In this document: positions 6,889 through 43,256 of the stretch, one piece after another | Position numbering within the stretch: position 1 is the stretch's first letter | Layout of the letters: each line of letters opens with the position of its first letter | Origin: Squalus acanthias | Lineage: Eukaryota | NCBI GenBank assembly: GCA_030390025.1 | Contig: CM059432.1 | Location: 66,466,001-66,530,000, forward strand | Length of the DNA stretch: 64,000 nucleotides | Reading direction: 5' to 3' | Program-made: the position numbers and the translations under genes | The notes under the pieces: generated by a model | The model's input: the letters and a program-made list of their open reading frames with translations, nothing else | Told to the model about the DNA's origin: nothing | Databases searched by the model: none

Positions 6889-7189
6889 GTTGCACCAGTG
6901 CACCCATCTGGCTCCCAGATGGTGTACCAACTGCGCCACCCTACCCCCACCCCCTCGCCACCAACACCACAAAGCAGTCCTAAAATGACCAAACCATTCC
7001 TGTCTCACACACACAACCATTGCCCGAGGTTAAGTAATGTCTCACCATTCACTCGAACTGACAAGGCCACTTCCCAGGTAGCAGGCAAAAATGGACAAGA
7101 CGGGAAAGTGGTGCAAAGAAATAAATTTATGTGGCTCATAAATAGAACTGAAACTTAACACTAACATTTTGGCAAACACCCTTGTGCAT

Positions 7190-9042
7190 CTACGATTGTG
7201 TCATTTTTCTTTTCCACTTGCTTCTACAAGGTGCAACCCCTGTGGATTCAGCAAAGGTAGAGGTAGGCTGCTCACTTCCCTGCTCTGACTGCTTAGACAC
7301 TTTTGGTGGTCGTCCTCTGGGTTTTGGAGCCTGTGAGGGCCCTGCCAAAGACTGCTCCTCCTGCAACTGTGCAGGGGCAGACTCGGCCATCGGGATCCGA
7401 GGCAGCATGTGGGGCTCTGACTGAGGGGGAGGCAATGGGGGAGAACAGGGAGCGCTTTGAGCAGAGCCCTCACTTCCTCTCACCATTATCCCTCTCATGG
7501 GCCAGCCATACTTCTCTGCTAGCAAGGATCTAGCACCTTGCTGCACACCAATGGGATGACGAACGTTCAATTCTACATTGGTATCCCTCCTAGAGATGAC
7601 TGCAATCAGAGTCTGCAAGCTGTTGTTCACAGCAAGCATACACTCCTTTGACTGGCGCATTAGCTGCTCCATGCAGGTGGCCATCCTTTCCATGGAGCAG
7701 CACATCGTCGCCATAGCCTGCAACATGGTGCTGCTCATGTTAGAGATGGACTCCTCCATTCTCTGTACAATTGTGCACATCGCAGCTGGAAAAGCTGCCA
7801 GAGCCTCGCGCATTTGCTGCTTCTCCTCCAGGATCAATCGCCTAGTTGACGGCCCCTGAGGTTTAGCATCTGCATCCATCTGAGCAGAGCTTGGAGTGTC
7901 CTATGCCCTCCGGCAAGGACTCTCCACTGCTGTCCCTGTCTCTACCATTTGCTCTTGCTCACTTGTGATGTGTGAGACACCAGGTGACAACACTACTCTA
8001 TGTCTCACAGGACCCACTGACATGCACGTATCTGCACTGGTGCTGGGTGCGCCTGGGTCTGGTGATGCTGCACCCTCAGAGACTGGAGCTTCCTCTGAGG
8101 AGTTGTCTTCCTCCTCTGGCTAGACAGTGGTGGGGGAGTTTGATGGACATATGGAAGAGTAAAGACATGAATTAGAACTCTTATGATAACAATGTTTCAA
8201 GTTACCATTATGCACATCATGATATTTCACTGGCTGCTGACATCAAGTCACCATGAGTGACGGTTGTATGCCATGTGGCTGTATGATATTTAATTCTGTC
8301 ACCAGGTTGCTGGGAGGTTCCCCTCTCTCCATCTCCCACCGCCAGCAGCTCTGCCACTCCGCTTAATTCCAGCACCACCTCCTCTGCTGGCAACAATGTA
8401 GTCTAAATTGGAGGGCCACCTCCGGTTCTCTGTCTCTCCCTGTTGTTCTGCGCTCTCTTCTCCTGCAAGCAGGTAAAGAAGAAAACTTTGAGTGAGAGTG
8501 CTGGATTGAGTGTAAGGGATGGATGGGTTATATCTGTAGAGGGTGACTATGAGGGAGAGGCGTGACATTGCCAAATGGCCTCCTTCTGTGGCGTTACTTT
8601 CTATGATTGCATTAGGCTGAGGGTGAGTGTCAGTGGTGGTTAGTCAGATGGGGATGTGAGTAGGTGCATAGACAGTGAGGGATGGGCGCACCTGCAAGGT
8701 AGGTTGGTGTGAGGAGTGGGAGTAGGCTTGGGAAGGCAGAGTGATGAGGTTGAGGTGACACACACATCAGGATGTATTTGAATGTGGCATTGTACTGACC
8801 TTTCCTGCCCTCGTGAGGTTATTAAATCTCTTCCTACACTGCATCCAGGAGCGGCTCACAACACCCCTGCTGCTCACTTCATGGGCGATCTCCAGCCATG
8901 CCCTCTTTGTTTCACTGGCTGGCCTCTTCCTGCCGTCACCAGGGAAGAGGATCTCCTTCTGTGCTCTCACTTCCTGGAGCAGGATGTTCAGGGAGGAATC
9001 AGAAAACCTGGGCGCAGCCTTCTGGCGCTGAGACTGCATCAT
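7190..9042 (-). pseudogene. Harbinger Myb/SANT-like gene, 3 exons (approx. 9042-8800, 8462-8303, 8148-7190)
   Basis: APRFSDSSLNILLQEV...WLEIAHEVSSRGVVSRSWMQCRKRFNNL. Donor and acceptor sites are visible; exon 3 has a heptad region and PRGRPPK. Confidence 0.88.
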
Positions 9043-18519: not shown

Positions 18520-19214
18520 GGAAACAAACAAATTCTTCCATGACAATATATTATTTTGGCAAAATTTTATATGACAAATTATGAAATTACTGGCCCAGAA
18601 ATCCGATGCGACGGAAAACAACTGGTGTTACCGTGGGGTGAGGTTAACTCCCGCCCGTAAAAAGAGCGCAGGCAGCTCCTTTATTTTGGTGCTGCCTGCT
18701 GATTTAAATGATCGGCGCACAGAACCTGCCATGTAACGTGTTGTTTCAGGCAGTAGTCTCAGCAGGAGACCCAATGTAACGTGGCTGTAGCATCCCTGGA
18801 GCAAGGCAGCGTTGTCTTAAAGCTAGCCTGTCATTTTAGAAAGCAGTCTCGAGCCCTTAAAGGGGAACTACCTTCTAAAATAAAAAAATAAAAATCATTT
18901 TAAAATAGGCAGTATTTAGCTTATTAGAGCTCAAATGCCTTCTGGAAATTTTTTTTTTAAGTAATTCGAAAATGGCAGTCTCAGCTCTTAAAGATGAACT
19001 GCCTCCTGCATGTAAAAAAATGGTAAAAGTGCTTCAGCACTAACCCAAATGGTTCAACAAGCCAGGGAAAGGGCACCCAGAGTCTTGCACACAGCTCTCC
19101 AGCTTGGTGCAGGGGGTCAACAATGCAAGAGAGGTCCTCTACCCACAGGGACCAGATCACTGATGTCACCATTGCCAGCAGTGTCACCCCCATGACCTGG
19201 CTCCAGTGCCCAAA

Positions 19215-19957
19215 GAAGTTTCATGCTAACATAAAAGGGAATCCAAAAGTCTTCTATAAGCATATAAATAGTAAACAGGTAGTAAGAGGAGGGGTGGGGC
19301 TGATTAGGGACCAAAATGCGGACCTACGCATGGAGGCAGAGGGCATGGCTGAGGTACTAAATGAATATTTTGCATCTGTCTGTACCAAGGGAGAAGATGC
19401 TGCCAAAGGCATAGTGAAAGAGGAGATAGTTGAGATGCTGGATGGGATAAGGAGGAGGTACTAGAAAGGCTGGCCGTACTTAAAGTAGATAAGTCACCAG
19501 GACCGGATGGGATGCATCCTAGGATGCTGAGGACAGTAAAGGCAGAAATTGCGGAGGTACTGGTGCCAGAGGACTGGAGAATTGCAAATGTTACACCCTT
19601 GTTAAAAAAAGGGTGTAAAGATAAACCCAGTAACTACAGGCCAGTCAGTTTAACCTCGGTAGTGGGGAAGCTTTAGAAACGATAATCCGGGACAAAATTA
19701 ACAGTCACTTGGACCAGTATGGATTAATTAAGGAAAGCCAACACGAATTTGTTAAAGGCAAATCGTGTTTAACTAACTTGATTGAGTTTTTTGATGAGGT
19801 AACAGAGAGGGTTGATGAGGGCAATGTGGTTGACGTGGTGTGCATGGACTTCCAAAAGGCATTTGATAAAGTGCCACATACTAGGCTTGCCAGCAAAGTT
19901 GAAGCCCATGGAATAAAAGGGACAGTGGCAGCATGGACACGAAATTGGCTAAGTGAC
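19215..19957 (+). mobile_element. CR1 LINE ORF2 fragment, 3' end lost at the ERV LTR junction
   Basis: NPKVFYKHIN...KSPGPDGMHP...SCLTNLIEFFDEVT...DFQKAFDKVPH. Confidence 0.92.
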
Positions 19958-20508
19958 TTACAAATCAACATGACAGGTAACGATCATGGTTCCATCGAGT
20001 CTGGATCGGTTCCCTCATCCTTTTGAGATGTTAATATCAAAATTGTTGCTGGAGTAAAACCCATTCACCAACCTTTCAGAATGCAGATAAGCCCGGAACT
20101 TTTCCCATCAAAACACCTTTGTGTGATAATGGACTATTCACTGACCCAGGATGGAGAAGTGATCAAATCAAGTACTCTATAGATTTGCAGAAACAGACAA
20201 GATTAAGATGGTACAATCAAAGTGTGGGGGGGGGGAGGTGGTGGTCAATCAATTGTCATGGGTATGATCTTTGTATTATAAAAAGGGTGCGTTTAGGGAC
20301 AAACTTCGGCAACTTGCAAGGGAACTGCAGACAGATTTGATCACCCGTACAGATGGAAACATACTCCTCTGAGTGGTCGCGGGGGTGAGTGGTGTTTGAA
20401 ATTAAAGAGAGTTAAAGGGAATAGCGTATGTAAATACTATTTGCAGTTAAAGGGAACAGTGCATTGACGTTTATATGCTATCTTTAGTACATAAACAGTT
20501 AAAAGAAT

Positions 20509-20926
20509 CTGGACTTAATATCGAGTTCAACAATTTTAGATCATAACCTCAGCTCCAATCACATTCATATTTTATTTTTTCCACCCTTTTATTTGCCCCC
20601 CCCCACCTTTTTTTTTTCCTCCTAGAAGCTGGCAGCTGTCCTTCATTCTGCCAGTGGATTTCACACTTCTTTCAGCCTTAATCTGTCACATTAACACCAC
20701 CTCTAGCCTTGCATATCTCTTAATGTCTCTTAATGTCTCTTCATCTCCCCCTTTGTTCTTTTATCCCCTCCCCCTTTTCCCAGCTTTACTCTGGCCTTAA
20801 ATCTATTTGATTTCCGGCTCTTCACAGTTCTGACGAAAGGTCATCGACCTGAAACGTTAACTCTCTTTCTCTCTCCACGGATGCTGCCTGGCCTGCTGAG
20901 TTTTTCCAGCGTTTTCTGTTGTTATT
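20509..20926 (+). mobile_element. 5'-truncated Penelope-like element inserted in the 5' LTR
   Basis: Matches 56096-56513. 10-bp TSD TTAAAAGAAT (20499-20508 / 20927-20936). Absent from the 3' LTR. Confidence 0.92.
20826..20862 (+). ncRNA. Minimal type I hammerhead ribozyme motif
   Basis: AGTT-CTGACGA-A-AGGTC(atc)GACCT-GAAACGTT-AACT. Confidence 0.85.
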
Positions 20927-21042
20927 TTAAAAGAATACTGAGTTGTACTGAGTTGTGAGCCTTGACCATTTTACCCCACCCAGACGATTCTGTAATTAGA
21001 GTATAAGAGGGAAGGTGCGGGTTCACCTACCTACAGATTTAG

Positions 21043-21060
21043 TGGCTCCCGAACAGTGAC
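21043..21060 (+). promoter_or_regulatory. Primer binding site, tRNA-Lys(UUU)-type
   Basis: TGGCTCCCGAACAGTGAC matches the Lys3 PBS TGGCGCCCGAACAGGGAC at 16 of 18 positions. Confidence 0.88.
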
Positions 21061-21074
21061 CTGATAGGGGAAAA

Positions 21075-24000
21075 ATGGAAGATAGGGTAGAGCAGTATTT
21101 GGGTAAGAAATTACCTTTGAAAGAGGGATGGGTATGAGTCAACGCGGCAGCATCCGATCCTCTAAAAGAAGCTGAGGAATGGGAGGAAACTCCCATGGCC
21201 AAGAGAAATCCAAAATGGGTACGCCCTGTGTGGTTGTTAGCATATAGGCAAAAACACAACAGTTAGTGCAGTCGCATCATCGATATGAAGAAAGGTTGCA
21301 GGAAAAGGATGCAGTAATAGCGAGATTGACAAAAGTGACACCGGTGGCTAGGGGAGACCCGGTAGTGTTGAATTATGATGAAGCTTATACTCCCTCACAA
21401 TTAAGGGAAGCAGCAAGGGATTTAGGAACCCTCGGACGGGGAGGAGATGTGGAAGGGCATTTTTTGCGCATAGAAACGATGGCTGCGATGCAGGGTTTCG
21501 ACGAATCTGAGAAAAAGAGAGCTGTTTGCTTTTTAGTCTGGCTGGGTTACCCCAAGACACCAAGTATGCCCAACCCGCGGTAACTTGGGACAATACTAAG
21601 TGACACGTTAGAGAAGCTTGCGGGTACTGAAGGGATGATCCATTTAAGATCATGGCACACTCTATGCAGGGGAAGGAGGAACACCCAGAAGCGTTTGCTA
21701 GCAGATTGTGACCTGTTTATAATGAAACACAAGGAAGAGGGTTGGATCGGAATCAACTGGCAGGAGACAGTCTCCACCGATGGATAAGAGCTCTTATAGC
21801 TCGCACGGAACCCGTTACTAATACAGCTATGTCAGGGTTTGATTTGGGAGACCCAGGCATGACAGAAGCTCGAGTGTTGAGGAAGTTGATTATATTTTGG
21901 GAGGATAAACAGGACAAGCAGGATAGGAACAAGGAATAAGGGAGGAAGAAAGGAAAAGTACAGAAGATGAAACCCCAGGTAACACCAGACCCGGCCCCTA
22001 AACAGGACCTGGGGAAACAGTGGAGATATGAAAGAGCAAAGCCAAGGGGGCCACCTGTGGGAAAAAAACAAGTGTAGGTGACCAACCAGGTAGAATCATA
22101 GATTCATACGGCACAGAAGGAGGCCATTCGGCCCATCGAGTCCATGCCGGCTCTCTGTAGAGCAATCCCATTCCCCCGCTCTATCCCCGTAGCCCTGCAA
22201 GTTTATTTCCCTCAAGTGCCTATCCAGTCTCCCCTTGAAAACATTGAGTGTCTCCGCCTCCACCACTTCCATTGGCAGCGAGTTCCAGGTCCTCACCACT
22301 CGCTGCGTAAAAAAGATTTTCCTCACATCCCCCCGTAATCAAAACCTTAAATCTGTGTCCCCTAGTCCTTGTACCATCAATTAGTGGGAACAGCCTTTCC
22401 CCGTCTAGCCTATCCAAACCCGTCATAATCTTGTACACCTCTATCAAATCACCCTTCAACCTCCTTTGCTCTAAGGAAAACAAATCCAGCTTCTGCAACC
22501 TGTCCTTGTAGCTAAGATCCCCCATCCCCAGAACCATTCTGGTAAATCTCCTCTGCACCCTCTCAAGGGCCTTCACATCCTTCCTAAAGTGTGGTGACCA
22601 GAACTGGACGCAATACTCCAGTTGTGGCCTAACCGGCGCTTTATAAAGGTTCAGCATAACTTCTCTACTTTTGTACTCAATACCTCTATTTATGAAGCCC
22701 AAGGTCCCATATGTTTTGCTAACCACTCTCTCAATATGTCTTGCCACCTTCAGGAATCTATGCACATTAACTCCCAGGTCCATCTGTCCCTGCACACTCT
22801 TTAAAACTGTGCCATTAAGTGTATAATGCCTCTCCCTGTTCCTTCTGCCAAAATGCATCACCTCACACTTCTCTGTATTAAATTCGACATGCCACTTGTC
22901 TGCCCATTCTGCTAGCCTTTCTATGTCTTGTTGCAGTCGATTAGTATCATCCTCACTATCTGCCACCGCCCCAAGTTTGGTGTCATCGGCAAATTTAGAA
23001 ATTCTACTCTGTATTCCAATATCCAGGTCATTTATATATATCAAAAAAAACAGTGGCCTCAGCACTGACCCTTGGGGAACACCACTGTCTACCATCCTCC
23101 AGTCTGAAAAACAGCCATTTAGCACAACTCGCTGTTTTCTGTCCTTAAGCCAATTCCTTCTCCAAGCTGCCACTGACCCACCTATTCCATGAGCCTCAAT
23201 TTTGTTAACCAGCCTTCTATGTGGTACTTTGTCAAACGCCTTCCGAAAATCCATGTCGACAACATCCATTGCATTCCCTTCATCAATCCTCTCTGTTACT
23301 TCATCAAAAAATTCAATTAGATTAGTCAAACACGATCTGCCTTTTACAAATCCGTGTTGGCTCTTCTTAATTAGCTTAAACCTCTCCAAGTGCCCGTTAA
23401 TTTTTTCCTTGATTATTGTTTCTAAAACTTTACCCACCACTGATGTTAAACTGTAGTTACTAGGATTGTCCTTGCACCCTTTCTTGAACAATGGTGTCAC
23501 ATTTGCCACTTTCCAATCCTCAGACACCTCTCCCGCATCTAGGGAAGATTAGAAATTTATGGCAAGCCCTTCTGCTATCTCCTCTCCCAGTTCCCTTAGC
23601 AACTTGGGATGCAAGCCATCTGGACCAGGCGACTTGTCCACTCTAAGCATACCCAAACTTTCTAGTACATCCTGTCTATCAATTTTCACCCCTTCCATTG
23701 CTTCTACCTTTTCCACTTCTACTGATATTTTGTCAGCATTCACCTCCTTAGTAAACACCGATACAAAGTACTCATTGAGTATTCTAGCCTTGCCCTGCGC
23801 CTTTAAGCATATATCACCTTCTTTGTCTCCTGCCTCTTACTACCCACTTACTGTTTACATGCCGGTATTTTTGGGTTCCCTTTTATGTTAACCACCATTC
23901 TACTCTCATATTCTCTCTTTGCCAATCTTATTTTCATCTTCACTTCCCCTCTCAATTTATTGTATTTGTTCTGGTGCTCCCTTGAAGAATTCACCTAACA

Positions 24001-25151
24001 TGCACCATACACCCTCTTTTTTAATTTCATCATCTTCTCTATCTCCCTCATCATCCAAGGATCCCTTGCTTTGGTTCCCTTACCCTTCCCTCTTGTTGGA
24101 ATGTACCTAGCCTGTACTTGGAACATCTCCTCCTCAAAGATCACCCATTGTTCCGTTACAGTTTTTCCTGTCAGTCTTTGGTTCCATTTTACCTTGGTTT
24201 GATCTTTTCACATCCCATTGAAGTTAGCCCTATTCCAGTTTAGAAGTTATTCTCCAGATTGTTCCTTGCTCCTCTCCATTGCTAATCTAAATCTTATGAT
24301 ACGATGATCACTCGTACCCAAGTGTTCTCCCACAGACACTTGGTCGACCTGGCCCACCTCATTCCCCAGCACCAGATCCAGCAATGCCTCCTTCCTAGTT
24401 GGGCCAAGAACATATTGGTCAAGGAAATTCTCCTGAACACATTTCAGAAATTCCTCCCCCTCCTTTCCCTTTACCCTAGCATTATCCCAATCGATATTTG
24501 GGTAATTAAAGTCCCCCAATATCACCACTCTATAGCTCTTGCATATCTCTGCGATTTCCCTGCAGATTTGCTCCTCTACCTCCCTCTCACTATTTGGAGG
24601 CCTATAGAATACCCCAAATAGCGTAATCATACCCTTTTTGCTCCTCAACTCTAACCAAATGGATTCTGTCGTTGTCCCCTCAAGAACATCCTCTTCCTTA
24701 ATCAGCACTGCCACCCCACCTCCCTTTTTTCCTTCCCTATCTTTTCTGAACACCTTGTACCCTTGAATTTTAAGTGCCCAGTCCTCACTGTTTTTAAACC
24801 ACGTTTCCGTTATTGCTACAACATCATATTACCACATGGCCAATTGTGCTTGTAGCTCACCAACCTTATTCACCACACTTTGTGCGTTTACGTACATGCA
24901 TTCTAAACCTATTTAGCAGAGAATACTATAACTGTGGGAAACTTGGCCATATAGCATGGGAGTGCTATGCGCCAAGGAATAGGGAAGGACCGAGAAAGAA
25001 TCCTGGGGGTGGTGGGTCTCAGGATGCAATAGTGTGACTGGCCCATGCCTTGGAGAAGGTAGTAAGCCAGACTGGAGGTAAATGTCATTCCTCCAAGGGA
25101 GGAGACGGAGGGGAACCTAAGCTGGAACCCTCCACACCCTCCGAGCAATGA
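21075..25151 (+). pseudogene. gag: gag, split by a CR1 insertion
   Basis: ATG 14 nt after the PBS, then capsid-like helical segments. After the CR1 comes the knuckle (Y)YNCGKLGHIAWEC (CX2CX4HX4C with first C changed to Y). Ends EPSTPSEQ-TGA. Confidence 0.75.
22095..24905 (-). mobile_element. CR1 LINE (endonuclease + RT ORF2, 3' tail) inserted in gag
   Basis: APE motif VVILGDFNYPNIDW; RT motifs GVPQGSVL and KFADDTKL. Same subfamily as 50521-51963. Confidence 0.95.
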
Positions 25152-27660
25152 AGGGGTCGTAACAGCCAGCTATCATATTGTGCCCACTCAGGTATGACAG
25201 CCACAGAAGACTGACCATGGATTTAATGGTAGAAGGAAAGTAAGGGGAATACCTGGCAGATACAGGGGCGTCGCATACCGTGGTCCACGCGAAGGATCCG
25301 CGGAGGTCCAATTGGTCTAGCGGTGAACCCTACGTTTTGGGAGAATTTACGGGAAATACGCTGCCTGGCATGGTATCAAAACCTCTTCGCATACAAGTGG
25401 GGCCACTTGGAATAAAGTGGGTACGCATATTAATGAATTGGGACAAGGCGAGAGGAGTATTGGGATCAGATTGTATGGAAGCAAATGGCTTAGTGATAGA
25501 TCTAGTTAATCACTGTTTATGGAAGGGCAGTGAAGGACAGTGTGTTCTGCTGGATGGACAAGGAAAGGAGAGTGTGGTTTCGGGAAAGGGAGCATATGAC
25601 TGGGAGGCACTAGTGAAAAAAGCCCTGAGTGGAGTAAAGCCATTAGAGAGCAGGAGAAGGGGGCGTTTGCCCAACACAAACACGACTGCGGGAGAATACC
25701 AGGAGTAGAGGTGGTAGTAGAGGGAGAACCTATGAAAACCCCGCAGAGGCAATATAATTTCCCCAAAGAAGCAGAGAGGGATTTAGAGGTAGTGGTAAAG
25801 TCCCTCGTGGATCAAGGGGTCTTAAGAACTCTGGCGATACACGTAAATTCACCGATTTGGCCTGTTAAGAAACCAGATGGATCATGGAGGACAATGATTG
25901 ATTATAGGGTATCAAATAAGAACATTCCTGCATGTGCCCCAACGGTCGCTGCTGTGACAGATTTGATTGGCTGTACACCAAGCTCCGTGGAAGGATACAC
26001 TGTGTTGGATATTTCGAATGGGTTTTGGTCTATTCCAATGAGAAAAGAAGATCAGTACAAATTTGTCTTCACCTTTAAAGGGCAGCAGTACACGTGGACA
26101 TGTCTGCCACAAGGGTTTCATAATAGCCCTTCACTATTCCATCAGCAAATGGCTAAGTGTTTTGAAGTGTTTTCCGGCAGGGACAAGCTGATCCAGTATG
26201 TGGATGACTTGTTACTATTCACAAAGACTCCTGAGGAACATATGGTGTTGCTGAAGGAGTTGTTGCAGCTCCTAATGCGATGCGGGTTGAAGGTAAACCC
26301 AAAAAAGGCTCAGATAGGGCAAAAGGAGGTACAACTTTTGGGGCTCACACTGCGACTGGGAGAGAGAGGCATAGATGAGGCAAAAAGGAAAGCGGTACAA
26401 GAGTTACCGATACCGGAGGATGTTCCGGCTTTAAGATCGTTTTTAGAACTGACGGGATATTGCCGTGAGTTTATAGAAAATTATGCAGGTATAGCTTGAC
26501 CTTTGTACACATTAACACGGAAGTCAGCCAAATGGGAGTGGACAGAGGAATGTGAGAGGGCTTTTCACACACTTAAGGAAAAGCTGCAAACAGCCCCAGC
26601 TTTGGGAGTGATAGACCCTACGCAGAATTTCTGGCTAGAGTGCGCAGCTATGGAAGCTAGTTTAAGTGCAGTACTGTTACAATCAGCCCATGGGAAACTT
26701 AGACCAGTAGCGTACGCTTTTCAGACATTAACTCCGGTAGAAATGGCGTACTCATCATGTGAGATGTTAGCTACCTAGTGGGCAGTTGAGCACTTTGCTG
26801 TATTTATGGGAGCCGCCACGGTAACCCTGAGAACGGGACATAATCCAACAAGATTATTGGTAGATGGGAGAATTAAAGAAGGGACGGTGTCCAGCCCTAC
26901 TATTAGTAGATGGAGTGTGTTACTGGGGTCATATGATCTGAAGGTGGAACCATTGAACCACCCGACCCTCGCATTAAATATGGAGTACACGGGAAAACCA
27001 CATCAATGTACAGTAGAGGGGATGTGGGAAATAGAAGGAGGATTTAAGAAGGGCATTCACCCGCAGGGGAGAGACATCTTTGTAGATGGATCCAGTTATA
27101 TGGAAAAGGGAGAAAGGCAGATGGGATGTGGAATTTGGGATCCAAGTAATGAGATAGCCGTGTCACTGAAATTACCGAATCATCTGAGTGCACAGCAAGT
27201 GGAGTTGGCTGCTGTTGCACATGTAGTAACCCACCCAACTGAGTTCCCACCACATTATACTGTCTGTTCGGATTTTATGTTTGTTTGTAATTCACTGACG
27301 GAGTTTCTAACGATTTGGGGAAAGCGAGGATTTAGATCAGCAGACAGGAAACCACTCTTAAATGGCCCTCTGCTGAAGATGGTGCTGCAGGTGATCAGGA
27401 ACAATGAAGGGAAATATGACTGTTTTATACACAAAGTGAAGGCTCACTCTAAGACAGAGCTGAGATGGGAAGGAAACGAGAATTCAGACATGCAAAGCAA
27501 AGAAAGGTACTGTAGGAGGAGTGCCTTAGGATCCCATGGAAGGAATGGGAGAAATAGCAATGATGGCGGCGGTTGAGCCAGTGAGAGTGAGTGATCTTAT
27601 GGAAGTGCAAAAGGCAGGTCCAGTACTCAGGGAGGTGTTAGGCAAACTAGAAAAGGGGGA

Positions 27661-27742
27661 AATAACAACAGAAAACGCTGGAAAAACTCAGCAGGCCAGG
27701 CAGCATCCGTAGAGAGAGAAAGAGAGTTGACGTTTCAGGTCG
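27661..27742 (-). mobile_element. 82-bp 3' tip of a Penelope-like element inserted in pol
   Basis: Reverse complement of about 20844-20926. 12-bp TSD AGAAAAGGGGGA (27649-27660 / 27743-27754). Confidence 0.9.
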
Positions 27743-28955
27743 AGAAAAGGGGGAGCCTGTTGAGGGACCCGATGGAAGACCTGAAGTGGGAATAAAAGAA
27801 GGGATGTTGTTTAAGAATGATAAATGGGTGGTGCCTACAGCCCAGAGGGAGGATTTTCTCTGATTAGTACATGGGGGACCGGGAGCAGGGAATCCTAGTG
27901 TAGAGGAAACGTGGAGAAGAGTAAATGCAGTGGGATGGTGGCCTCATCAGAGAGAGGATGTGGAGGATTTTTGTCATAATTGTCTGATTTGTGCAGCCAA
28001 TAATCCAGACCCACATAGGAGAAAGGTACCTTTGGGGTGCACCCAAAGATCAGAAGGGCCTTGGCAGTGTGTGCAGATAGATTTTATAGGACCTCTCCCA
28101 ATATCCAGCAGAGGGAATAAGTACTGTTCAGTTCTGGTAGATAACTTTACCAAATGGGTTGAGGCGTTTCCATGTAAGGCAGCTACTGTCCTAACTACAG
28201 CTAAAATCCTGGTGAAGGAGGCATTCTCTAGATGGGGACTACCATGGATCATGGAATCAGATCAGGGAAGTCACTTTACTGGACAGGTACTGCAAGCGAA
28301 TTTGAAACTGCTGGCTATTGAAGGGAAATGACATGTAAGCCATAATCCGCAGTCCTCAGGAATTGTAGAGCGCATGAATAGAACCCTAAAAGAAAGACTT
28401 AGGAAAGAACTGGATGAACAAAAGAAGAAATGGGATGAAGTGTTACCACTGGTGTTGATAAATATTAGGGGGAGTACCTCTCATACAACAGGGTATTCAC
28501 CTCATGAGTTGATGACAGGGAGACCTATGAGAACACCGTTACACTTATTGGTACCTGTTCTGACTGAAAGACAGGAGAATGAAGTAACTCAGGACAGATT
28601 TGTGAGAGACCTGAAGAAACAGTTGGAGGAGCTCTGTAGACAAGCTGCAGGGAATATTGGCAGAAAACATCAAACCAATAAAATTAATTTAGAACCACAC
28701 AAACCACAGGAATGAGACATAGGGGATCAGGTGATGGTGAGGAATTATGCTCGGGTAGGAGTGTTTGAACCGCTGTATAAGGGACCGTATAATATTGTGG
28801 AAAAAGCTCGCCCACTGGTATATATGGTACAACTACCCAAGAAGGTAAAATGGTTCCACATCAATCAAATGAAACTGTACAAACCCCAAAGGAAACAACA
28901 GAGAGCGGAAGGGACTGTTATAAGTATGATAAAATGTGGACCATGGAAGATGAGT

Positions 28956-29330
28956 CATCGAGTCATACAGTCATAACGGCACAGAAGGAGGCCATTCGGC
29001 CCATTGAGTCCATGCCGACTCTCTGCAGAGCAATCCAGTCAGTCCCATTCCCCCGCTCTATCCCCATAGCCCTGCAAGTTTATTTCCCTCAAGTGCCTAT
29101 CCAGTCTCCCCTTGAAAACATTGAGTGTGTCTGCTTCCACCACTTCCGTCGGCAGCGAGTTCCAGGTCCTCACCACTCGCTGCGTAAAAAGTTTTTCCTC
29201 GCATTCCCCCTGTATCTCTTGCCCAAAACCTTAAACCTGTGTCCCCTAATCCTTGTACCATCAACTAGTGGTTTTCCCTGTCTAGCCTATCCAAACCCAT
29301 CATAATCTTGTACACCTCTATCAAATCACA
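28956..29330 (-). mobile_element. CR1 3' end fragment inserted in the integrase C-terminus
   Basis: Near-identical to 22100-22450 and 52084-52350. Confidence 0.9.
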
Positions 29331-29625
29331 TCAAATCAAATCAAATCCTCTATCAATGAGGGTGTACTTTGTTGATTCATCCACAGAGACAGCCACAAGG
29401 GCCTCCAGTATCAGTCCCAGCCCCTCGAAGAATGGCAACAGGAGGTGCCAACAACAGAAAGGGAGAGAGCCCAAAGAGAGCTAGCCCTAGAGGCCCGAAA
29501 TATAACTTGAGGAGTCATAAATGCCAAGGGCATGCATGTAAATTCTGTAAATGAATAAGTTACTTATTTAACCAATCGGATCTGCGTAGCCTGGATAGTG
29601 TAGTAGGGGCCAACGCAAAGCGAAC

Positions 29626-29647
29626 CTTTGTTTATTTTATTTTACAG
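29626..29647 (+). promoter_or_regulatory. Probable env splice acceptor
   Basis: T-rich tract TTTGTTTATTTTATTTTACAG ending 24 nt before the env ATG. Confidence 0.7.
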
Positions 29648-29671: not shown

Positions 29672-32630
29672 ATGAAGAGTGTGTTAGCGCTTCTCTTGGG
29701 AATCATGTGGTACGAAAGTATGACCTCCGAAGTAGATTGGTGCTCATCGATGGTCACCTACCTGGGGAAAATGGCCGAAGCTGAAACATACTCTAAGGAA
29801 CTGTATTTTGCATGTCCTTTTGACAGTAACAACAGCTCTGAAAAAGGGGCAACAGGATGCAAGGGTAATTTAGCTTTGGTAAAGGTGCTAGAGGTAAAGG
29901 AAGGGAGACGAATCTGTGAAAAACGTAGCTTTGAGTCACCAGTGGATAGTAACAAGTGCACAATACCTAAATTACGCAATGCCACAGACATAGTACTGTT
30001 CACGCCTGCACCGGGAAAACCTAGTGTGGAAGGGTTAAATGCAGAAGCGGCTGTATCTGTAAGATTGTACGGGGGAAAAATTGGGTTCATTTGCGCCTCT
30101 CATTAAACGGGGCACAAATCCCCTAGCGCCTCCCGCAGCGGTAGCTGGTAGCGCCCAGTAGCGCTGCGCCACCGACGATAACATTATCGATGTGCACAGC
30201 GCCCCGCTTGCACCCCAGTCGCAAACTTCCCTTGTGCCCCTGACCTATCGCCGGACGATATGTCCGACAGGGTCAGGGGGCGCTTTTGCAGCGGCGGCGG
30301 CGGTAGTTAAAAGGGCAGGTGTCGGGTGGCCACCTTTTTTTGGCCGACTGCCAACACTTGCCCCCTTTCCCTTTTTTTTTCAGGGTGCCGGCCGCGCTCG
30401 CTCAGCCCGGCACTCCATTGCAGGCCTCCTCCCTTTAATCAGGGGAGGAGGCCTGCAATGACACGGTGCTATGTGCCTACGCGCGTGCCGTTGTTGCACG
30501 TAGCGCCGCGATCTTCAGTAGTAGCGCCCCAAGAAGGAGGTAGAGCACTTCCAGTAGCGCCCCACCTCCTGCTTGGGGTGCCACCACTGAATTTCCGGCA
30601 GAGGGGCGCTAACTTTTTCGGGACGCTAAAATTAGCGGCCTGTTGATGTTAGCGCCCCAAAAGGGGCGCCACCCAATTTTTCCCCCTACGAAACCAATCA
30701 ATCTGTGAGTGACGGTATAGTCTACTGTTGGCCGAATTGGAATAAGCAATACGAGGGCAAATATTATTGTGAGCGTAGTGCCTTTGGGAATAATGTAGCA
30801 GGAAAGAGTGCGAGTAAAGAAGTAAACCATCAAACTATAATAATGTATCATTTAAAAACAACACCAAAGAAAACACCTGATTTAAAACAACAAAAATCTC
30901 CAGAGTGTCCAAAGCAAATACCAGGACCCAAAAATGGCCTGGTATTGGTCCCAACCAATCCGATTTTATATCAAAACGTTCTTTATCAGATAATTCCAGT
31001 TATTTTGAATTTGACCGAGGCAAGATGGCCAAGCTGGTGTAAAAGAGACACCCGAAAGCCGATAGATAAAATGCGGCAACAAGTAGTTAAAGATTTTTGG
31101 GGGGACACTGGAGATTCATGGGAATCCAAAGATTTGATAAATCATTAGGAAGAAGTGGAGAAGTAGCCGACTCCACCTACTATAGTGGTCACGACCCAAA
31201 GCCCACAAGGAAAGAGGAAGAGAAGGAGTTTGATTAATGATATAGTGACGGGAGTCAACACAGCAGGAATGGCTTCTAATAGATTAGATTTAGTAACAAT
31301 GAATCGTGAATTAAGGAAAGCTAAGCAGCAAATCAAAAGTATCTTACAGCAAAGCAATAATTTAATGCAACAGCAACTATACGAGGACCTGATAATGACT
31401 CTCCATTTAACAAAACTTACTAATCCTATTTTAGATACTGCTAGAAAGGTGGATCAGCTCATCAAGGAAGATCGAAATGCTAGTACAGAGGCAGCTCAGA
31501 ATTACATGTGCATGATGTGTGGGAATTAGTTGGTAGAACAAACCCGCCATCATTTAGAGAAATTAGAGGAGGGATATGTTTCTGATTGGATTAGCAATGA
31601 ACACTTAACACAATTGACAGATTATGAAATTTCACCTAATGTGAGTATATGTAAATTAAGAAGGTCGATTAAGGCTCAAGTAGTTTATCACAAATGTGAT
31701 AGTCCTGCTAATGATACAGTGGTAGGAATAGTGTTGAAATTCCCTCTCATAACTCCAAAACATCAGGGATATCCCCTGTTTAGAGTAGAAAACATTGGAC
31801 ATGTATTGTATGGGACACAAATAGTAACGGAGCACCGAGACAATGCTCCTTATGTAGCCTGTAACGCCTCCGCGAGTGCAGCGGATAGGTGGATTCCCAT
31901 AGACCTGGTGGGATGTCAGCAAGTGAGAGAGACAGTAATTTATCCCTGTAGATTACATGACCATAAAGGATCAGCATGTGGATTCTCTGGGAAGAGGGCA
32001 AATTGTACCATGTAATCTATATCAGGAAGACGTGGAGTTGTTAACTCTGCTTATAGAGGGAATGGAATGATTTGTGTAACCACAACTGTAAAATCTTTTA
32101 TTTATGGAAATAATTTGATATGCCCAGTTATACAACCAACCTTTTGTATTAAGCCTGTTCATGTGGTATTGATAGGACATAGGATTCTACAACCCTTACA
32201 CCTAGGAAAGGAAACTGGTATTGATGTATCAGACCCACTCTCGAATTTGAACATGGAAGAATTTGTTAGTAAGTTTGGCTATGATATAGATTTACTTGAA
32301 CCCGAAGTTTAGGCTAAAATAACTAAATTACTGAATGATCTTCATGTAACCCAGCATGTATTGTGGAAATTAAAGCAAAGACAAAGTGAAGTGGGGAAAG
32401 ACATGCAAAATATCAAAATTATCCCATGGTGGAAACAATTATGGAATTGGGGAACTACAGTTGAGATAAATCCTTGGATAAGAATCGTGTCTCATGTATT
32501 GGTCATAATCCAATTGATCATTGTGATCTATTTGCAATGTCCGTCGATGGCATAGAAAAGACGGCAGAAGAAGAGACAGCAAAAGTTAATGCGTGAGGTC
32601 TTGTTTCAGCAAGAACAGAAGTTGGTTTAA
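29672..32630 (+). pseudogene. env: env: class I fusion glycoprotein, 779 codons after MITE removal, six nonsense codons
   Basis: Signal peptide MKSVLALLLGIMW, furin site RKRR (31215-31226), fusion peptide SLINDIVTGVNTAG, HR1, Cys-rich region, HR2, Trp-rich PWWKQLWNW, TM helix, basic tail. Confidence 0.9.
30071..30686. mobile_element. Harbinger MITE inserted in env
   Basis: Perfect 16-bp TIR GGGGGAAAAATTGGGT and TSD TAC. Excision restores the env frame (VRLY/ETNQSVSDG). Confidence 0.95.
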
Positions 32631-32683: not shown

Positions 32684-33713
32684 TGTAGCCAGTCCTGCAG
32701 CAAGAATGCACTTAACTTAAAGTAAACCGACATTAAAGGGTTAAGCGGCTGTACTGTACAGGAAGTTTTGTAAATTGGCCAATCATAAGAAATTGACCAA
32801 GCTTCATATCCCAGCATGCCTCGAAGAACCAACGGGTCTTTTAAATGAACTTTTTAAACAAGCTGTGAGCTGAACGGAATGCAGGAGGAAATTATTCATA
32901 CAGAGACACAGACATGATTGATTGACTTTATGAATATGCGAACCAAGGAAGTAGCTGGAGTAATCAGGCCACACAATGACATGTGTTTGTTTAAATTTAA
33001 CTGACTGCCCTGTCCATTGGTCAGGCTGTTAACAAGACTTACAAATCAACACAACAGGTAACAATCATGGTTCCACCAAGTCTGGATCGGTTCCCTCATC
33101 CTTTGGAGATGTTAATATCAAAATTGTTGCTGGAGTAAAACCCATTCGCCAACCTTTCAGAATGCAGATAAGCCCGGAACTTTTCCCCATCAAAACACCT
33201 TTGTGTGATAATGGACTATTCACTGACCCAGGATGGAGAAGTGATCAAATCAAGTACTCTATAGATTTGCAGAAACAGACAAGATTAAGATGGTATAATC
33301 AAAGTGTGTGGGGGGGGAGGGGTGGTGGGGGGTTGCGTCAATCAATTGTCATGGGTATGATCTTTGTATTATAAAAAGGGTGCGTTTAGGGACAAACTTC
33401 GACAACTTGCAAGGGAACTGCAGACAGATTTGATCACCCGTACAGATGGAAACACACTCCTCTGAGTGATCGCGGGGGTGAGTGGTGTTTGAAATTAAAG
33501 AGAGTTAAAGGGAACAGTGTATGTAAGTACTATTTGAAGTTAAAGGGAACAGTGCATTGATGTTTGTATGTTATCCTTAGTACAAGAAACAGTTAAAAGA
33601 ATACTGAGTTGTACTGAGTTGTGAGCCTTGACTATTTTACCCCACCCGGACGGTTTCAGGTTAGATTCTGGAATTAGAGTATAAGAGGGAAGGTGCGGGT
33701 TCGCCTACCGACA
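32684..33713 (+). repeat. ERV 3' LTR (about 1.03 kb)
   Basis: TGTAG...GACA termini; TATAAAA near 33370; matches the 5' LTR from 33036 onward. Confidence 0.9.
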
Positions 33714-37232: not shown

Positions 37233-39947
37233 TGTAAGGGGTGACCTGCGGCTCTGTGCTTAGCCTGGGTGCTAGTGCGGGGTTAGACCTTGTTGCCTGT
37301 TCTGGTCTCCAGCCAGCCTGGTAACACTAGACACCTGTGAGTGGTTCGACCCACTCGCCCTTACGGTTCTGACACTGGACTTAGGTGCGAAAGCAATAAT
37401 GCAGAGAAAGACTCAAGTAGACCCGGTTGAATAGTGTGAAATGGAAAATCTTTATTGCATATTATTCAAGATTACGAGATACATGTCATAAGCACAGATT
37501 AATGACAGTACAATCTTACACACCGTTATGAAACTACTTTTAAGGAAACGAGGAGCGCATGACACATCGTAAAAGGGGACACACATTATAATTATCCTTA
37601 AAACTTAAACCCTCCCCTATCAATACCTGTCCTAATCTAGATTTGTAGGATCGAGACTCATGCTCACCACTCGTGATAACTCGGAGAATTCCGAAACTCT
37701 GCTCGGATGTTTTTACCGCAGCACCTGACTATCCACGTGTTGATCAGGGGTCTCTGTACCCCACTTGTTTACTCGTTTCTGCTCCGGCTAGCAGGCTGGA
37801 CCATCTGCTGTCATGAAGATCTGTGTTGTCCTCGGAGTTCCGATACTACTCAAAAAAGAGTCTTCCTGTGCCCTCACACCGGTTCGATAAAGCTCAAAGA
37901 AGGGTCTTCCTAGGCAAGGAAGTGTTTATTCGACTTACAGGCGCGGTCGGGGCTTACTGACCGTGGCGATGCGTATTGTCGTCTTCTTCTCTTCTCATCT
38001 CATCTCATCTCATCTCCTCTCGGGCCTTCGGTTCCAACACCGTTTACCGACTTCTCGGATGGTGCGCCCGTTTCAAGGCCTCACAGCCCAGTTCTCCACA
38101 GATCTTCGCGGCAAGCCACAAGGTTGATCCTAGCGGATCAGAGTCCAGAGCCGTCAGGCAAGAGAATAAAAGTTCAGCAGCCTTCCAGCGAGTCAAAGCA
38201 GCAAGCGCAAAAGGAAGAAGAGAGCGATGGACAGTTGTACCTCACAGTTATAGTGCTGTAATTCCTCTTTTCCCGCCCAATCTTAATGTCTATCTTTTGT
38301 CAGGGTTTTGGCGCTCAAACTTCTTGTATAGGGTGATCTCAGTCTTTAATGGGTTTCGGTGATACTTGTAACTGTCTGAGTACCCGTTAATATTTCTCCC
38401 ATTGTGGAACCGGCTAGTAGTCTCCCTGGAGGGGTTTTGGGGCTTCCAAATGCTTACTGTAAGTACCCGCAAACGGCTCTCTCATCGTAGAGTCGTGGGG
38501 ATTTTGCATATTAATGTCTTTGGATGGGTCCTTGATTGCTCAGTACAATAGCCCTTATTTGCACCCAGGAGACCGATTCCAGTATTCATGTTTAAAATGC
38601 AAACCCATCATGTCTTGTCATTTATCTCAAATGTGCTGAGTCCTGTACGATCTTGCACAAATGTTTATTGGAACATAAGAACATAAGAACATAAGAAATA
38701 GGAGCAGGAGTAGGCCAATCGGCCCCTCGAGCCTGCTCCGCCATTCAATAAGATCATGGCTGATCTGATCCTAACCACCAATCTACTATCTATCACAGAA
38801 CCATCTCCTGCATCTAACAGAATTGCACACACGAAATAGGAGCAGAATCAGGCTACACAGTCCCTGGGCCCGCTCCACTACCCACAGGGCCATGACCGAT
38901 CCGAACCTAGACTCATGTCCAAATTCCTGCCCGCTCCCCGTAACCCTTAATGCCCTTTACTTCTAGGAAACTGTCTATTTCTGTTTTAAATTTAATTAAT
39001 GTTGTAGCTTCTACAGCTTTTTGTGGCAGCATATTCCATGGACCTACCACCCTCTGAGTGAAGTAGTTCCTCCTCATCTCAGTTTTGAAAGAGCAGCCCC
39101 TTATTCTAAGACTATGTCCCCTAGTTCTCGTCTCACCCGTCATCGGGAACATCCTCCCCGCATCCACCCGATCCAACCCCTTCACAATCTTATATGTTTC
39201 AATAAGATCGCCTCTCATTCTTCTGAACTCCAATGAGTAGAGTCCCAATCTACCCAACCTCTCCTCATATGACCACCCCCTCATCCCCGGGATTAACCGA
39301 ATGAACCTTTTTTGCACTGCCTCGAGAGCAAGGATGTCTTTCCTTAAGTAAGGACACCAAAACTGTATGCAGTATTCCAGGTGCGGTCTCACCAATACCT
39401 TGTACAACTGAAGCAATACCTCCCTATTTTTATATTCTATCCCCCTAGCAATGAAAGCCAACATTCCATTTGCCTTCTTAATCACTTGCTGCACCTGCAT
39501 ACTAACCTTTTGAGTTTCGTGCACCAGGACCCCCAGATCCCTTTGCACTTCAGTACTCTCCAGTTTCTTGCCATTAAGATAATAAATTGCTCTAGGATTT
39601 TTCCTGCCAAAGTGCATCACCTCACACTTTCCAGTGTTGTATTCCATCTGCCAAATCTCTGCCCACTTACTTAGCCTGTCTATGTCCCCTTGCAGGTTTT
39701 TTATGTCCTCCTCATTCACTACTTTCCCTCCCATCTTTGTATCATCTGCAAATTTTGATATGTTACACCATCTTGTCTGCCCACTGAAAGTCTAGAACTT
39801 TCTGCCACGAGGTGTGGCGGCCATTTTGCAGGCTGTTTGTGTCCGTTTTGAAACCTGACAGCATTCTGCTGAAATAAAAGCTGTTTATACGAAACTTTAT
39901 GTCTCCTTCTTATTTTATAAAATCGCGATAATTTTGCGAATTCTACA
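37233..39947 (-). mobile_element. Solo LTR, family A, nested in LTR-B
   Basis: Inverted homologue of 16883-18519; TSD ACTG (37229-37232 / 39948-39951). Confidence 0.9.
38675..39764 (-). mobile_element. 5'-truncated CR1 nested in LTR-A
   Basis: Open ORF2 C-terminus 38913-39734 (LVRPHLEYCIQFW); (ATAAGAAC)n tail. Confidence 0.95.
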
Positions 39948-41559
39948 ACTGTCAAGAACTGTCAATTGGTGAGCATTATTGCTGATCCTCTGGAATTAAA
40001 CCTAGCTAGGCAGTGGGATTGGGAGGGATAAGGGTTTTTGTATATTGTAATTCTCCCTCGCCTGTACCGTGTGTTCGCCAACCTGTGTTTAAGCATTAAG
40101 TGTGTTTTAAGTTTCTTACCTTTTTCTTTAATAAAAGTCAAAACTCTTTCATCAAAACCTGTTGTCTACTGCATCTTTGTTCACAACCCCCAAATAAGTC
40201 CCAGGTCTAGAACCAGGGGCATGGGAGCGATTCGAACCGCTCACTGAGTCAGAGGTGAAGTTGACCCTACCATACCACCCCCTACACAGCAGTGCCAAAG
40301 GAGGCTGAGACTTTTGCGACAGGTAGTTGCAGGCATTTGCACAATGCTCGATCAAGACCTGCAGCCCAGAGGAATGGGTGGACACGCCTTACCAGTGGCT
40401 GTCAAAGTCACCACCACCCTCAACTTCTTTGCGTCAGGCTCCTTCCAGCAGACATTAGCAGCATCTCTCAGTCGGCCGCCCACAGATGGATCACGCAGGT
40501 CACCGATGCCCTCTTTGACAAGTCTGCCAATTACATCCACTTTTCCACTGATGAAGCCAGTGTTACCGAGCGGGCGCTCGGCTTTGTTAATCTGGCTGGC
40601 TTCCCACGGGTGCAGGGCTTCATCGACTGCACACATGTGGCCATCAGGGTACCCCATCAGAACGCAGCAGTATTTGTCAACCACAAGGGCTTCCACTCCC
40701 TTAACAGTAGCTGGTCTGCAACCATAGGAAGAGCATCATGCGTGTGTGCGTGAGATTCCCTGGCAGCTGCCATGACTCTTACATCCTGCGCCAGTCCACT
40801 GTCCCTCAGCTCTTCGCACCGCCAAACGAACTTTCCGGCTGGCTCCTTGGAGACAAGGGCTAACCCCTGAAGACGTGGCTAATGACACCGTTGAGGAGGC
40901 CATCAAACGAGTCTGAAGAGCATTATAACCAAAGCCACATTTCCACCAGAAGTCTCATAGAGCAAACAATAGGGTTGCTCAAAATGCACTTCAGTTGCCT
41001 GGACAGATCTGGTGGAGACCTTCAGTAAACACCAGCCAGGGTCTCGAGAATCATCGTTGTCTGTTGTGCTCTGCACAACATAGCACTGCAGCGAGGATTA
41101 GCGCTGCAAGAGGCACAAAGTGCAGAGCGCACAGCCTCTTCAGAGGAGGAGGAGGAGCAGAATGAGGTTCAGCATGAGGAAGACCTGCAGGAGGCAGCTG
41201 ACGCAATGCGACCAGCATGCGAGCACATTGCTGCCCGTGACGCCAGGGATGGCTTAATCAATGTCAGATTCACCTAACTTTATGCAGCACAGGCTGCCGC
41301 ATTTGCATGAAGGTTGGCATCACACCACTTCAACACCATAGAGCATCTCTACAATGAACTGTTCATTCCTTGCACTGTCACCACTATTGCTGGACATAAA
41401 AGGCACCCTTACCCTTCACTCTGCCACTTGCAATTGCGAGCACACATATGGAAATGAATGCAAACACTCAGAAAAAAATAATTTATTACAACAAAGTAAA
41501 AGAACAGAAACTTAACATTCATTTATAGCAAATCACCCAAGTGACTACCCTTGTGACTA

Positions 41560-43256
41560 TTTATGTGGGATCTTTCTTTTATGCGTGCTTCTACGTAGTG
41601 CTACCTCTGTGGCTTCAGCAGATGTAGAGGCAGCCTGCTCACTTCCCTGCTGCGCCTGCTTAGACGCTTTTGGCAGTTGTCCTCTGGGTTTTGGAGTTTG
41701 TGAGGGCCCCGCCAAAGTCTGCTCCTCCTGCAGACTGTCCAGGGAGGCATCTGGGGCTCTGACCGAGGGGTTGGCAAGGGGGTGGAAGTTTGAGCACTCG
41801 GAGAGGAGCCCCCACTTCCATGTCCCACAGATGATTATCTTTTTAGATTAACTCCTGAGTCTGGCGATTTATGTCCTCCATGAAGGTGGCCATCCTTTCC
41901 ATAGCGGCACCTACATTTGCCATTGCGTGCACCAAGGCAGTGTGTTTGTGAAGGACTCCTCCATTCTCTGCACACTCGCAGTCACCGTGGTTGCAAACCC
42001 TGTCAGAGCCTCCTGAACTTGTTCCTAAAGCTCCAGAATTGCCCTCTTCCTGGATGGCCCCCGAGGCTCAGTGTCTGCATGCAGCTCAGCAGAGCTAGGA
42101 GACTCCTGCGGCCTCCAACGAGGAGTCTCCACTGCTGTCCCTGTCTCCAGCATCTGATCTTGCTCACTTGTGAGCTGTGATACACCAGGTGACAACACTA
42201 CTCTATCCCGCATAGGACCCACCAAGGTGTGCGTCTCTGCGCTGGTGCTGGGTGCACTCATTTCTGCTGATGCTGCACCCTCAGAGGCTGGAGGATCCTC
42301 TGAGGAGTGCTCCTGCTCTTCCTCCTGGACAGTGGGGGGCCGGGCTCTTGATGGTGCTGTGAGAGAGTAAAGACATGAGTTAGACATGCGATATGTAGAT
42401 TGCAGACACATCCCATTATGCACATGATGAGCATTCAATTTCTCTTGACATCAGACCCCATATGAGTCACTCATGAATGCCAAATAAAATGTATGGAAAA
42501 TAATTCTGTCACTAGGTTGTTCTACTGAGCCCCTCTCTCCGTCCCCCACTTCAGGCTGGTCAACGACTCCTGTTATGTCCAGAGCTGCCTCCTCAGCGTT
42601 GGTGAGCACAGCCAATGACGATGGTCCTCCTCCTGTTGTCTCCCTCCCCCTCTTATTGTGGGCTCTCTTTTTCTGCAATGAGGGAAACAAGAAAAGTTTG
42701 AGTGAGAGTGATGGAATGAGTGTAAAGAATGGATGGGATAGAGGTTTAGAGGGAGACTATGATGGAGTGGGGTGCCAATACCAAGTTGCCTCCTTTTGAG
42801 TTGTTAGTTGTTTTGGTTGCATAATGATGAGGGTGAGTGTGAGGGGTGCATAGTAAGATGGGGATGTGATTTTGTACATAGGGAGAGAGGAATGGGTGAT
42901 AGTGCAAGGGATGTTGGGGTGAGTAAGGATGTGCAGGAGTAGAGTTGGCAATGCAGAGTGATGGGGATGTGATGACAGGCACAGCAGAATGAAGGTAGGT
43001 GTGCTTTTATACTCACTTTTCCTGAACGCAGAAGATCATTAAACCTCTTCCTACATTGCACCCAGGTGCGAACAACCACAGACCTTGCATTGACCTCCTC
43101 AGCTATTTGCAGTCAGGCTGCCCTTGTCTGATGATGAGGTCTCCTCCTTCCATTCCCAGGGAATAGAACCTCCCTGCATCCTCTGACTCCCTCCACAAGA
43201 ACATGGAGGGAGTCATTGTTGAATCGTGGTGCAGCCCTTTGTCTCTCTGCAGTCAT
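41560..43256 (-). pseudogene. Harbinger Myb/SANT-like gene, 3 exons
   Basis: MTAERQRAAPRFNNDSLHVL...RTWVQCRKRFNDLLRSGK then GT; exon 2 KKRAHNKRGRETTGGGP. Confidence 0.87.

Follow-up and report, generated by a model that had tools for sequence, protein, structure and literature searches.

Introduction

Retroviral envelope (Env) proteins resembling the fusion protein F of paramyxoviruses have already been published for the lokiretroviruses (Loki; PMC7947760) and the foamy viruses (PMC11468914), and F-like Env proteins also for invertebrate errantiviruses (10.1101/2023.10.26.564294). Loki Env resembles Fusion_gly, Loki Pol carries a tether plus RNase H (RH), and Loki was found in none of the six chondrichthyan genomes covered by the survey (PMC7947760). 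In the scheme of Fernandez et al., orthoretrovirus Env belongs to class Ia and foamy Env alone to class Ib (PMC11468914), and epsilonretrovirus Env is omitted from the beta/gamma classification as set out in 10.1101/2021.11.05.467493. As to how retroviral env arose, Wang and Han left four scenarios open (PMC7947760) and later favoured independent gains of env in Loki and in the canonical retroviruses (PMC9040795). Snakehead retrovirus (SnRV) has the status of an unclassified orthoretrovirus (PMC12193657); SnRV-like endogenous retroviruses (ERVs) form the clade Huo (PMC6001957) and are known from the elephant shark (PMC4422223). Here we describe an env gene in a 64,000-nucleotide stretch of the Squalus acanthias genome (GCA_030390025.1, CM059432.1:66,466,001-66,530,000, forward strand), referred to as the window, whose own positions serve as coordinates throughout. 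The gene is the third of a dead, decayed ERV with two long terminal repeats (LTRs). We consider it likely, and with good confidence, that this broken env encoded a class Ib fusogen of the paramyxovirus-F/foamy-Env kind with a probable immunoglobulin (Ig)-like head, in an element whose reverse transcriptase (RT) is most likely SnRV-like.

Reading frame of the env gene

The env gene lies in two pieces (Table 1). The 5' piece is free of stops in frame, whereas the two remaining plus frames hold 11 and 13. The 3' piece (30690-32630, 646 codons) has six internal stops (31146, 31164, 31527, 32013, 32310 and 32553), compared with 53 and 69 for the two alternative plus frames, and ends in a terminal TAA at 32628 that is kept in all 17 copies covering the site. 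The pieces are separated by a miniature inverted-repeat transposable element (MITE), and this insertion was absent from 15/15 other loci covering both flanks (L027 and L028 being near-duplicates); the two pieces are therefore one gene. Thus env is a single-frame gene of 779 codons, broken by the MITE and six stops. A preliminary description of this DNA had proposed a single frame once the MITE is removed, with stops at exactly these six sites, and the frame-by-frame counts agree. It had also proposed cleavage at RKRR into 312 and 467 residues without a CX6CC motif or an immunosuppressive domain (ISD); this division was reproduced, and neither CX6CC nor an ISD-like motif was found by a pattern search of the window env. 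The precursor carries 10 sequons.

The fusion core

The major data for the fold of the core were profile, language-model and structure searches. With a 31-sequence profile, the search of the PDB matched F0 (6mjz and 8tqk, which we take to be hPIV3 F0) at positions 57-485 (E=1.2e-4), the match beginning in F2. The beta-rich region of the same profile matched foamy Env (8ozh, presumably of prototype foamy virus, 1.8e-4; 8rm1, 0.002; 8rm0, 0.011). The next match was keratin at 0.27, and a HERV-K chain was found at E=0.49. In the language-model search (Atlas), a natural homologue fell with the Fusion_gly, Baculo_F and Gypsy clusters, which scored 0.93 and had 202-215 features in common with it. 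An AlphaFold2 (AF2) model of env (pLDDT 61.5, pTM 0.42) was compared to the PDB with Foldseek, a check put forward in the preliminary description, and all 36 rows listed were paramyxo/pneumovirus F (35, including the top 10) or foamy Env (1), the matches to F having E values of about 1e-4 and 9-15% identity. In BFVD the top rows were the Env proteins of the walleye epsilonretroviruses WEHV1 and WDSV (Q9WHI8 and A4GTG3; 2-3e-8, TM-scores 0.09-0.15), after which came the F proteins of mononegaviruses and baculoviruses; feline foamy Env was listed at 4e-4. Neither gamma/beta-type Env nor SnRV Env was named among the 50 BFVD rows listed, five of which were unnamed.

The layout of the protein is consistent with these matches. 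As in class Ib, an F2-like segment with an invariant Cys, aligned to F2 of F0, precedes the furin site, and the long post-cleavage subunit of 467 residues contains a predicted fusion peptide, heptad repeat A (HRA), Cys-rich beta domains, HRB and a transmembrane (TM) helix; homology to F is weakly indicated by the profile, Foldseek and Atlas. The features of gamma-type Env (TLV_coat) were not observed, there being no ISD, no CX6CC and no TLV_coat match in a subunit of 467 residues. The beta/lenti-type (gp41-like) arrangement was likewise not seen, as about 260 residues with many conserved Cys lie between the HR1 and HR2 helices. The earlier proposal of an F-type rather than a gamma- or beta-type TM subunit is thus favoured by profile, Atlas and Foldseek alike. 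The F-type assignment rests on several weak, agreeing signals, none of them strong, and is made with fair confidence.

A full HMMER search found 37 homologous proteins at E<=0.001, while a word-indexed protein search with env found no match. Of 27 homologues looked up, 20 were named: 17 from cartilaginous fish, two from frogs and one from the coelacanth, all of them uncharacterised, hypothetical or apparently chimeric gene models. By sequence, the env family spans sharks, rays, frogs and the coelacanth. The conserved part of env starts about 105 residues before the furin site, where the Cys are kept in 8/8 and 10/10 homologues, and seven Cys downstream of the cleavage site are conserved in 93-100%. 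In P0009, P0024 and P0025, env fragments appear to be joined to host-like sequences (Niban-1-like, cadherin-like and fbxo15); these fusions are probably annotation chimeras.

The N-terminal subunit

The 312-residue N-terminal subunit had been called unrecognised, which proved to be only partly right. It was resolved into a variable head, a Pro/Thr/Lys-rich linker and, from about 30906, a conserved F2-like module that makes up its last ~105 residues. The head is probably Ig-like, as deduced from profiles built from natural copies that lack the MITE. The head profile including one skate homologue matched CD8-alpha (E=0.023) with both Ig cysteines aligned. The family head profile aligned to the head domain of a sister ERV family in the same genome (hhalign 71%, E=3.8e-5), and that domain in turn gave weak PDB matches in which 17/18 rows were JAM or antibody chains (16 antibody), the best being JAM at E=0.12. 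Atlas rows for Ig were obtained with the head at 0.88-0.90, not in first place, and a weak V-set match was found in the head of a relative. From position only, the head is a candidate for receptor binding.

The homologues P0003, P0017, P0022, P0007 and P0028 have a common core and differing N-terminal heads (Ig-like, V-set-like or Cys-rich); several of these are single unbroken open reading frames, from bamboo shark and frog. Such differences among family members suggest that heads were exchanged.

Placement of the reverse transcriptase

For the placement of Pol, Loki RT rows were labelled by motifs from the supplement of PMC7947760 and not by database names. The approximately unbiased (AU) tests used LG+G4 on 25 of 123 rows chosen by hand, with FFV and spider monkey SFV as foamy references. 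The window RT is 42.5% identical to P0052, whose RT matches the SnRV row of PMC7947760 by eye, and SnRV had the highest identity among the named viruses in the set; Loki-type RTs were 32-37% and the two foamy RTs 34-35% identical. In three trees the window RT fell outside the Loki (99-100) and foamy (100) clades, near frog and coelacanth elements and SnRV. The grouping with SnRV was a 22-row group with an SH-aLRT of 86 in one tree and a polytomy in the other two, and enforcing it cost 0.8 log-likelihood units (lnL; p=0.46). Foamy identity was ruled out, since union with the foamy viruses was rejected (p=0.0025) and the RT lies outside their clade. A scan of viral contigs with the window RT gave no match. 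From these comparisons, the window RT is most likely snakehead-retrovirus-like.

Other copies in the genome

The genome searched comprised 3.7 Gb. At least 26 other env places were found, 40 of 49 candidates having been scored and two matches of 72-73% left out. At 15/26 env places a family RT is no more than 16 kb away, and 15 of the 19 RT places have env nearby. With pieces and duplicates dropped, 21 of 29 other loci were retained, and every copy contains stops and frameshifts. The tree of 15 env copies is star-like, with pN/pS of 0.82 for private and 0.54 for shared variants; the env copies arose in a burst of insertion followed by roughly neutral decay. At the window locus no full-length env product is possible, and domestication of the window env was ruled out by the MITE, the six stops and the neutral decay.

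Five of the six window stops each recur in no more than one of 14-19 other copies; the sixth, at 31146, is common to many (Table 1). CpG hypermutation was considered as the cause of this shared stop and does not explain it. The stop may instead have spread from an env-defective template.

Near-identical env copies 67-95 kb apart were observed at C1:7.00-7.14 Mb (three) and C26:7.48-7.58 Mb (two), and are probably segmental duplications.

The sister family is a young, high-copy ERV family (loci L031-L053) with env frames mostly open (94/94 scored matches). Its identity to the window family is 35% over the env core and 69% over RT, and the window env forms a long branch separate from that of the sister family. 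The sister family belongs to the same Pol lineage and has an F-type env, and the window family is separate and decayed.

Proposed function and alternative explanations

By analogy with F and foamy Env, the intact env would be expressed from a spliced RNA; its precursor would carry sugars on the sequons, and furin would cut it at RKRR. Within the core, the F2-like module would remain joined to the TM subunit, probably by a bond between the Cys at 31038 and that at 31509. This disulfide was deduced because both Cys are conserved (10/10 and 13/15 homologues, respectively) and because F2 and F1 are joined by a disulfide in F proteins. The Ig-like head, held at the N terminus on the Pro/Thr/Lys tether, could bind a receptor; its placement would be like that in coronavirus spike and unlike that in foamy Env, where the domain is inserted. 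HRA would then refold into a trimeric coiled coil, the fusion peptide would insert, and HR2 would zip back to form a six-helix bundle, so that the membranes merge. Furin cleavage, an F2-like part of the core, a trimer, HRA refolding and a six-helix bundle have been described for F and foamy Env (PMC11468914).

Several results weigh against an F-type core with an Ig-like head. Pfam and single-sequence PDB searches with env gave no match, a second profile (post-cleavage, A4) gave no F match, the Foldseek TM-scores were just 0.11-0.25, and the VIA-align lists (wide and second-look) were dominated by generic helices, so that families may be missed there. A three-copy complex prediction for a natural relative (score 0.01, with the alignment not used and the fold of the relative itself uncertain) spoke neither for nor against. 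The F-like matches could be spurious, produced by long coiled coils and dispersed cysteines in an unrelated or class Ia-type fusogen. We regard this as very unlikely because the foamy Env match lies in the beta-rich region, outside the coiled coils, because three different methods name the same family, and because a post-cleavage subunit of this length without CX6CC or ISD is ill-suited to class Ia. More room is left for doubt about the head, which may not have the Ig fold or may be a spacer instead of a receptor-binding domain (RBD). The AF2 model of the head had a pLDDT of 32, the family-only profile without the skate homologue gave no Ig match, and P0007, P0028 and P0031 bear another, Cys-rich head. 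The two Ig-type cysteines nevertheless align with both CD8-alpha and the sister-family domain, and the antibody and JAM matches of that domain and the V-set match of a relative point the same way. A non-Ig or non-binding head on an F-type core is possible, although we consider it rather unlikely, and the Ig fold is judged probable.

Lokiretrovirus identity was the first lead. The element would then be the first Loki in a cartilaginous fish, with the known Env of that group plus an added head, and would extend the hosts of Loki given the chondrichthyan genomes without it (PMC7947760). The tether plus RH and the F-like Env of Loki (PMC7947760) are both present here, and neither is Loki-specific. 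The opening motif of the F2-like module also begins mature Loki Env proteins, by eye (PMC7947760 supplement), and the AU test left the union with Loki unrejected (p=0.072). This identity was dropped on RT motifs and trees, as the window RT has LPQG where Loki rows bear CPFG and lies outside the Loki clade in all three trees. Moreover, the forced union was 19.8 lnL worse, as against 0.8 for the SnRV-like grouping, and 0/20 named env homologues come from the ray-finned fish and lampreys in which Loki is most frequent. A lokiretrovirus is therefore considered quite improbable. The shared stop raises a different question, since some truncated ERV Envs block receptors. The 31146 stop, downstream of the head and F2-like module and present in 10/18 copies, could be adaptive if the family made a secreted, receptor-blocking N-terminal subunit. 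The window copy, however, is also broken by the MITE inside the head, the copies decay neutrally, of 84 columns none tracks the stop once corrected (lowest p=0.011), and an env-defective template explains the stop equally well. An adaptive stop is thus deemed hardly credible, and the preferred reading remains a decayed, SnRV-like ERV with an F-type, probably Ig-headed Env.

Comparison with known systems

Loki Env and the window Env share a signal peptide, an F2-like module, an RxKR site, a fusion peptide, a coiled coil, a Cys-rich beta region and a TM helix, and the two elements share the similarity to Fusion_gly and the tether plus RH of Pol (PMC7947760). In four Loki consensus proteins, however, the F2-like module directly follows the signal peptide (PMC7947760), whereas in the window Env it is preceded by some 185 additional residues that probably form an Ig fold, and the window RT is not Loki-type. 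Foamy Env (class Ib) likewise has an F-type core built by both subunits (PMC11468914) and was matched directly by the 31-sequence profile. It differs in having an N-terminal membrane anchor and an RBD inserted between the F2-like part and the cleavage site (PMC11468914), whereas the extra domain of the window Env is N-terminal, behind a short signal peptide. The rejected RT union and the CCHC knuckle remnant of the window Gag also set it apart from foamy viruses. The F proteins of paramyxoviruses and pneumoviruses (PF00523; hPIV3, RSV) share the F2-furin-F1 layout and the length of the post-cleavage subunit, but have no receptor-binding head and rely on a separate attachment protein; their identity to the window env is 9-15%, with no sequence-level Pfam match.

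The walleye epsilonretroviruses gave the best BFVD matches, which are to predicted models only, but their Env proteins are longer (1159-1317 residues in BFVD) and their Pol is class I. These model-based matches suggest that the walleye viruses, which are exogenous orthoretroviruses, also use an F-type Env. To the SnRV-like ERVs of clade Huo the likeness lies in Pol, SnRV being the closest named RT in the set. A Pro-rich linker follows the IgV-like RBD-C of gamma-type Env. The Ig fold is already known in gamma-type RBDs, and RBD-C is, as the window head would be, an N-terminal, independently folding Ig-like domain, but it sits on a class Ia surface/TM Env with CXXC and CX6CC, whereas the window head sits on an F-type core (bioRxiv 10.1101/2024.03.17.585361).

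No description was found in the literature of an F-type Env on an SnRV-like or epsilon-type Pol, nor of an F-type Env with an Ig head; the foamy structure in Cell 2024 and preprint supplements were outside the search. Together, the data suggest that F-type Env likely occurred in more of the early retroviruses than the literature records. If true, an F-type Env on an SnRV-like Pol, with the spread of the family and the walleye match, would break the class Ia/Ib split and would favour either an ancestral F-type Env or repeated exchange of env among aquatic retroviruses. The head would represent a third route by which an F scaffold can gain a receptor-binding module. Tentatively, and with less than even confidence, we hypothesize that F-type (class Ib) Env is the ancestral retroviral Env, kept in Loki, foamy viruses, SnRV-like ERVs of shark, frog and coelacanth, and walleye epsilonretroviruses, and that the gamma/beta TM was a later orthoretroviral replacement; heads in the shark lineage would be exchangeable, and the Ig head could precede the gamma-type IgV-like RBD. 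The window locus is itself an ordinary dead provirus, and its value lies in the env family.

Provirus anatomy and repeats

The features of the provirus are collected in Table 1.

Table 1. Features of the provirus and its env gene (window positions)
Feature	Position	Strand	Basis
5' LTR remnant, first ~350 bp missing, insertion at about 20509-20926	19955..21036	+	94% and 86% matches to 3' LTR
Primer-binding-site-like sequence	21043..21060	+	TGG-initiated 18-mer just behind LTR end
Decayed gag, split by long interspersed element (LINE; about 22095-24913)	21075..25170	+	Both sides of LINE shared with other copies
Decayed pro-pol: protease, RT, tether, RNase H, integrase	25244..28976	+	Pfam RVT_1, RNase_H, Integrase_H2C2, rve; RT_RNaseH_2
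Later repeat insertion between pol and env	28955..29389		Missing from copy L055; repeat families D1, D20
Splice-acceptor-like pyrimidine tract and AG, upstream of env	29628..29647	+	Acceptor-like pattern in 10/13 copies
5' piece of env, with signal peptide and initial part of variable head	29672..30070	+	133 codons, ATG, hydropathy peak at residues 2-14
Probable Ig-like (V-type) head, interrupted by MITE; candidate receptor-binding module	29867..30782	+	CD8-alpha match, hhalign to sister domain
MITE (616 bp, 30071-30686) and 3-bp target duplication, private to window copy	30071..30689		Identical 16-bp terminal inverted repeats (TIRs)
Pro/Thr/Lys-rich linker	30852..30905	+	Sequence composition
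F2-like module: conserved Cys, GP-x-G-LVL strand, Cys, helix	30906..31109	+	Aligned to F2 of F0
Premature stop common to many copies	31146..31148	+	9/17 other copies, 10/18 counting window copy
Furin-type cleavage site RKRR	31215..31226	+	Basic site at same place in homologues
Putative fusion peptide and HR1/HRA helices	31227..31523	+	AF2 helices 181-226, 232-278; fusion-peptide role from position
Cys-rich beta domains (F domains I/II-like)	31650..32189	+	Seven of nine Cys conserved in 93-100%; matches foamy Env, F0
HR2/HRB helix	32316..32411	+	AF2 helix 543-574
TM helix, short basic tail, terminal stop	32478..32630	+	Hydropathy peak at residues 597-621
3' LTR, ~1030 bp, decayed polypurine tract in front	32684..33713	+	Match to 5' LTR

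The primer-binding-site-like 18-mer is presumably tRNA-Lys-like, a candidate assignment. The CCHC zinc-knuckle remnant of gag lies at 24927-24965 (zf-CCHC, E=5e-4), and the protease of pro-pol was matched weakly by Pfam gag-asp_proteas (E=0.004). The Kimura two-parameter (K2P) divergence between the LTRs is 0.040 over 669 sites, which corresponds to an age of 9 to 91 million years at the two rates of PMC4422223; given this span, the age of the provirus is poorly fixed.

LINE RT fragments were observed at 22095-24913, 19027-19954 and 38900-39800, and are presumably CR1-like in appearance. Of these, one interrupts gag and another lies against the truncated 5' LTR, which leaves no target-site duplication of the provirus to be read. 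The MITE is a dispersed repeat with 39 other places among the best 40 of 8156 candidates scored; its TIRs are perfect, yet the best long matches elsewhere in that set are merely 74-84% identical. A TAA duplication flanks another copy, which presumably fits MITEs of the PIF/Harbinger type. A further long repeat family (D4, D6, D7, D9 and D12) is present in three copies of 75-88% identity at 6496-8850, 40906-43067 and 59602-60527.
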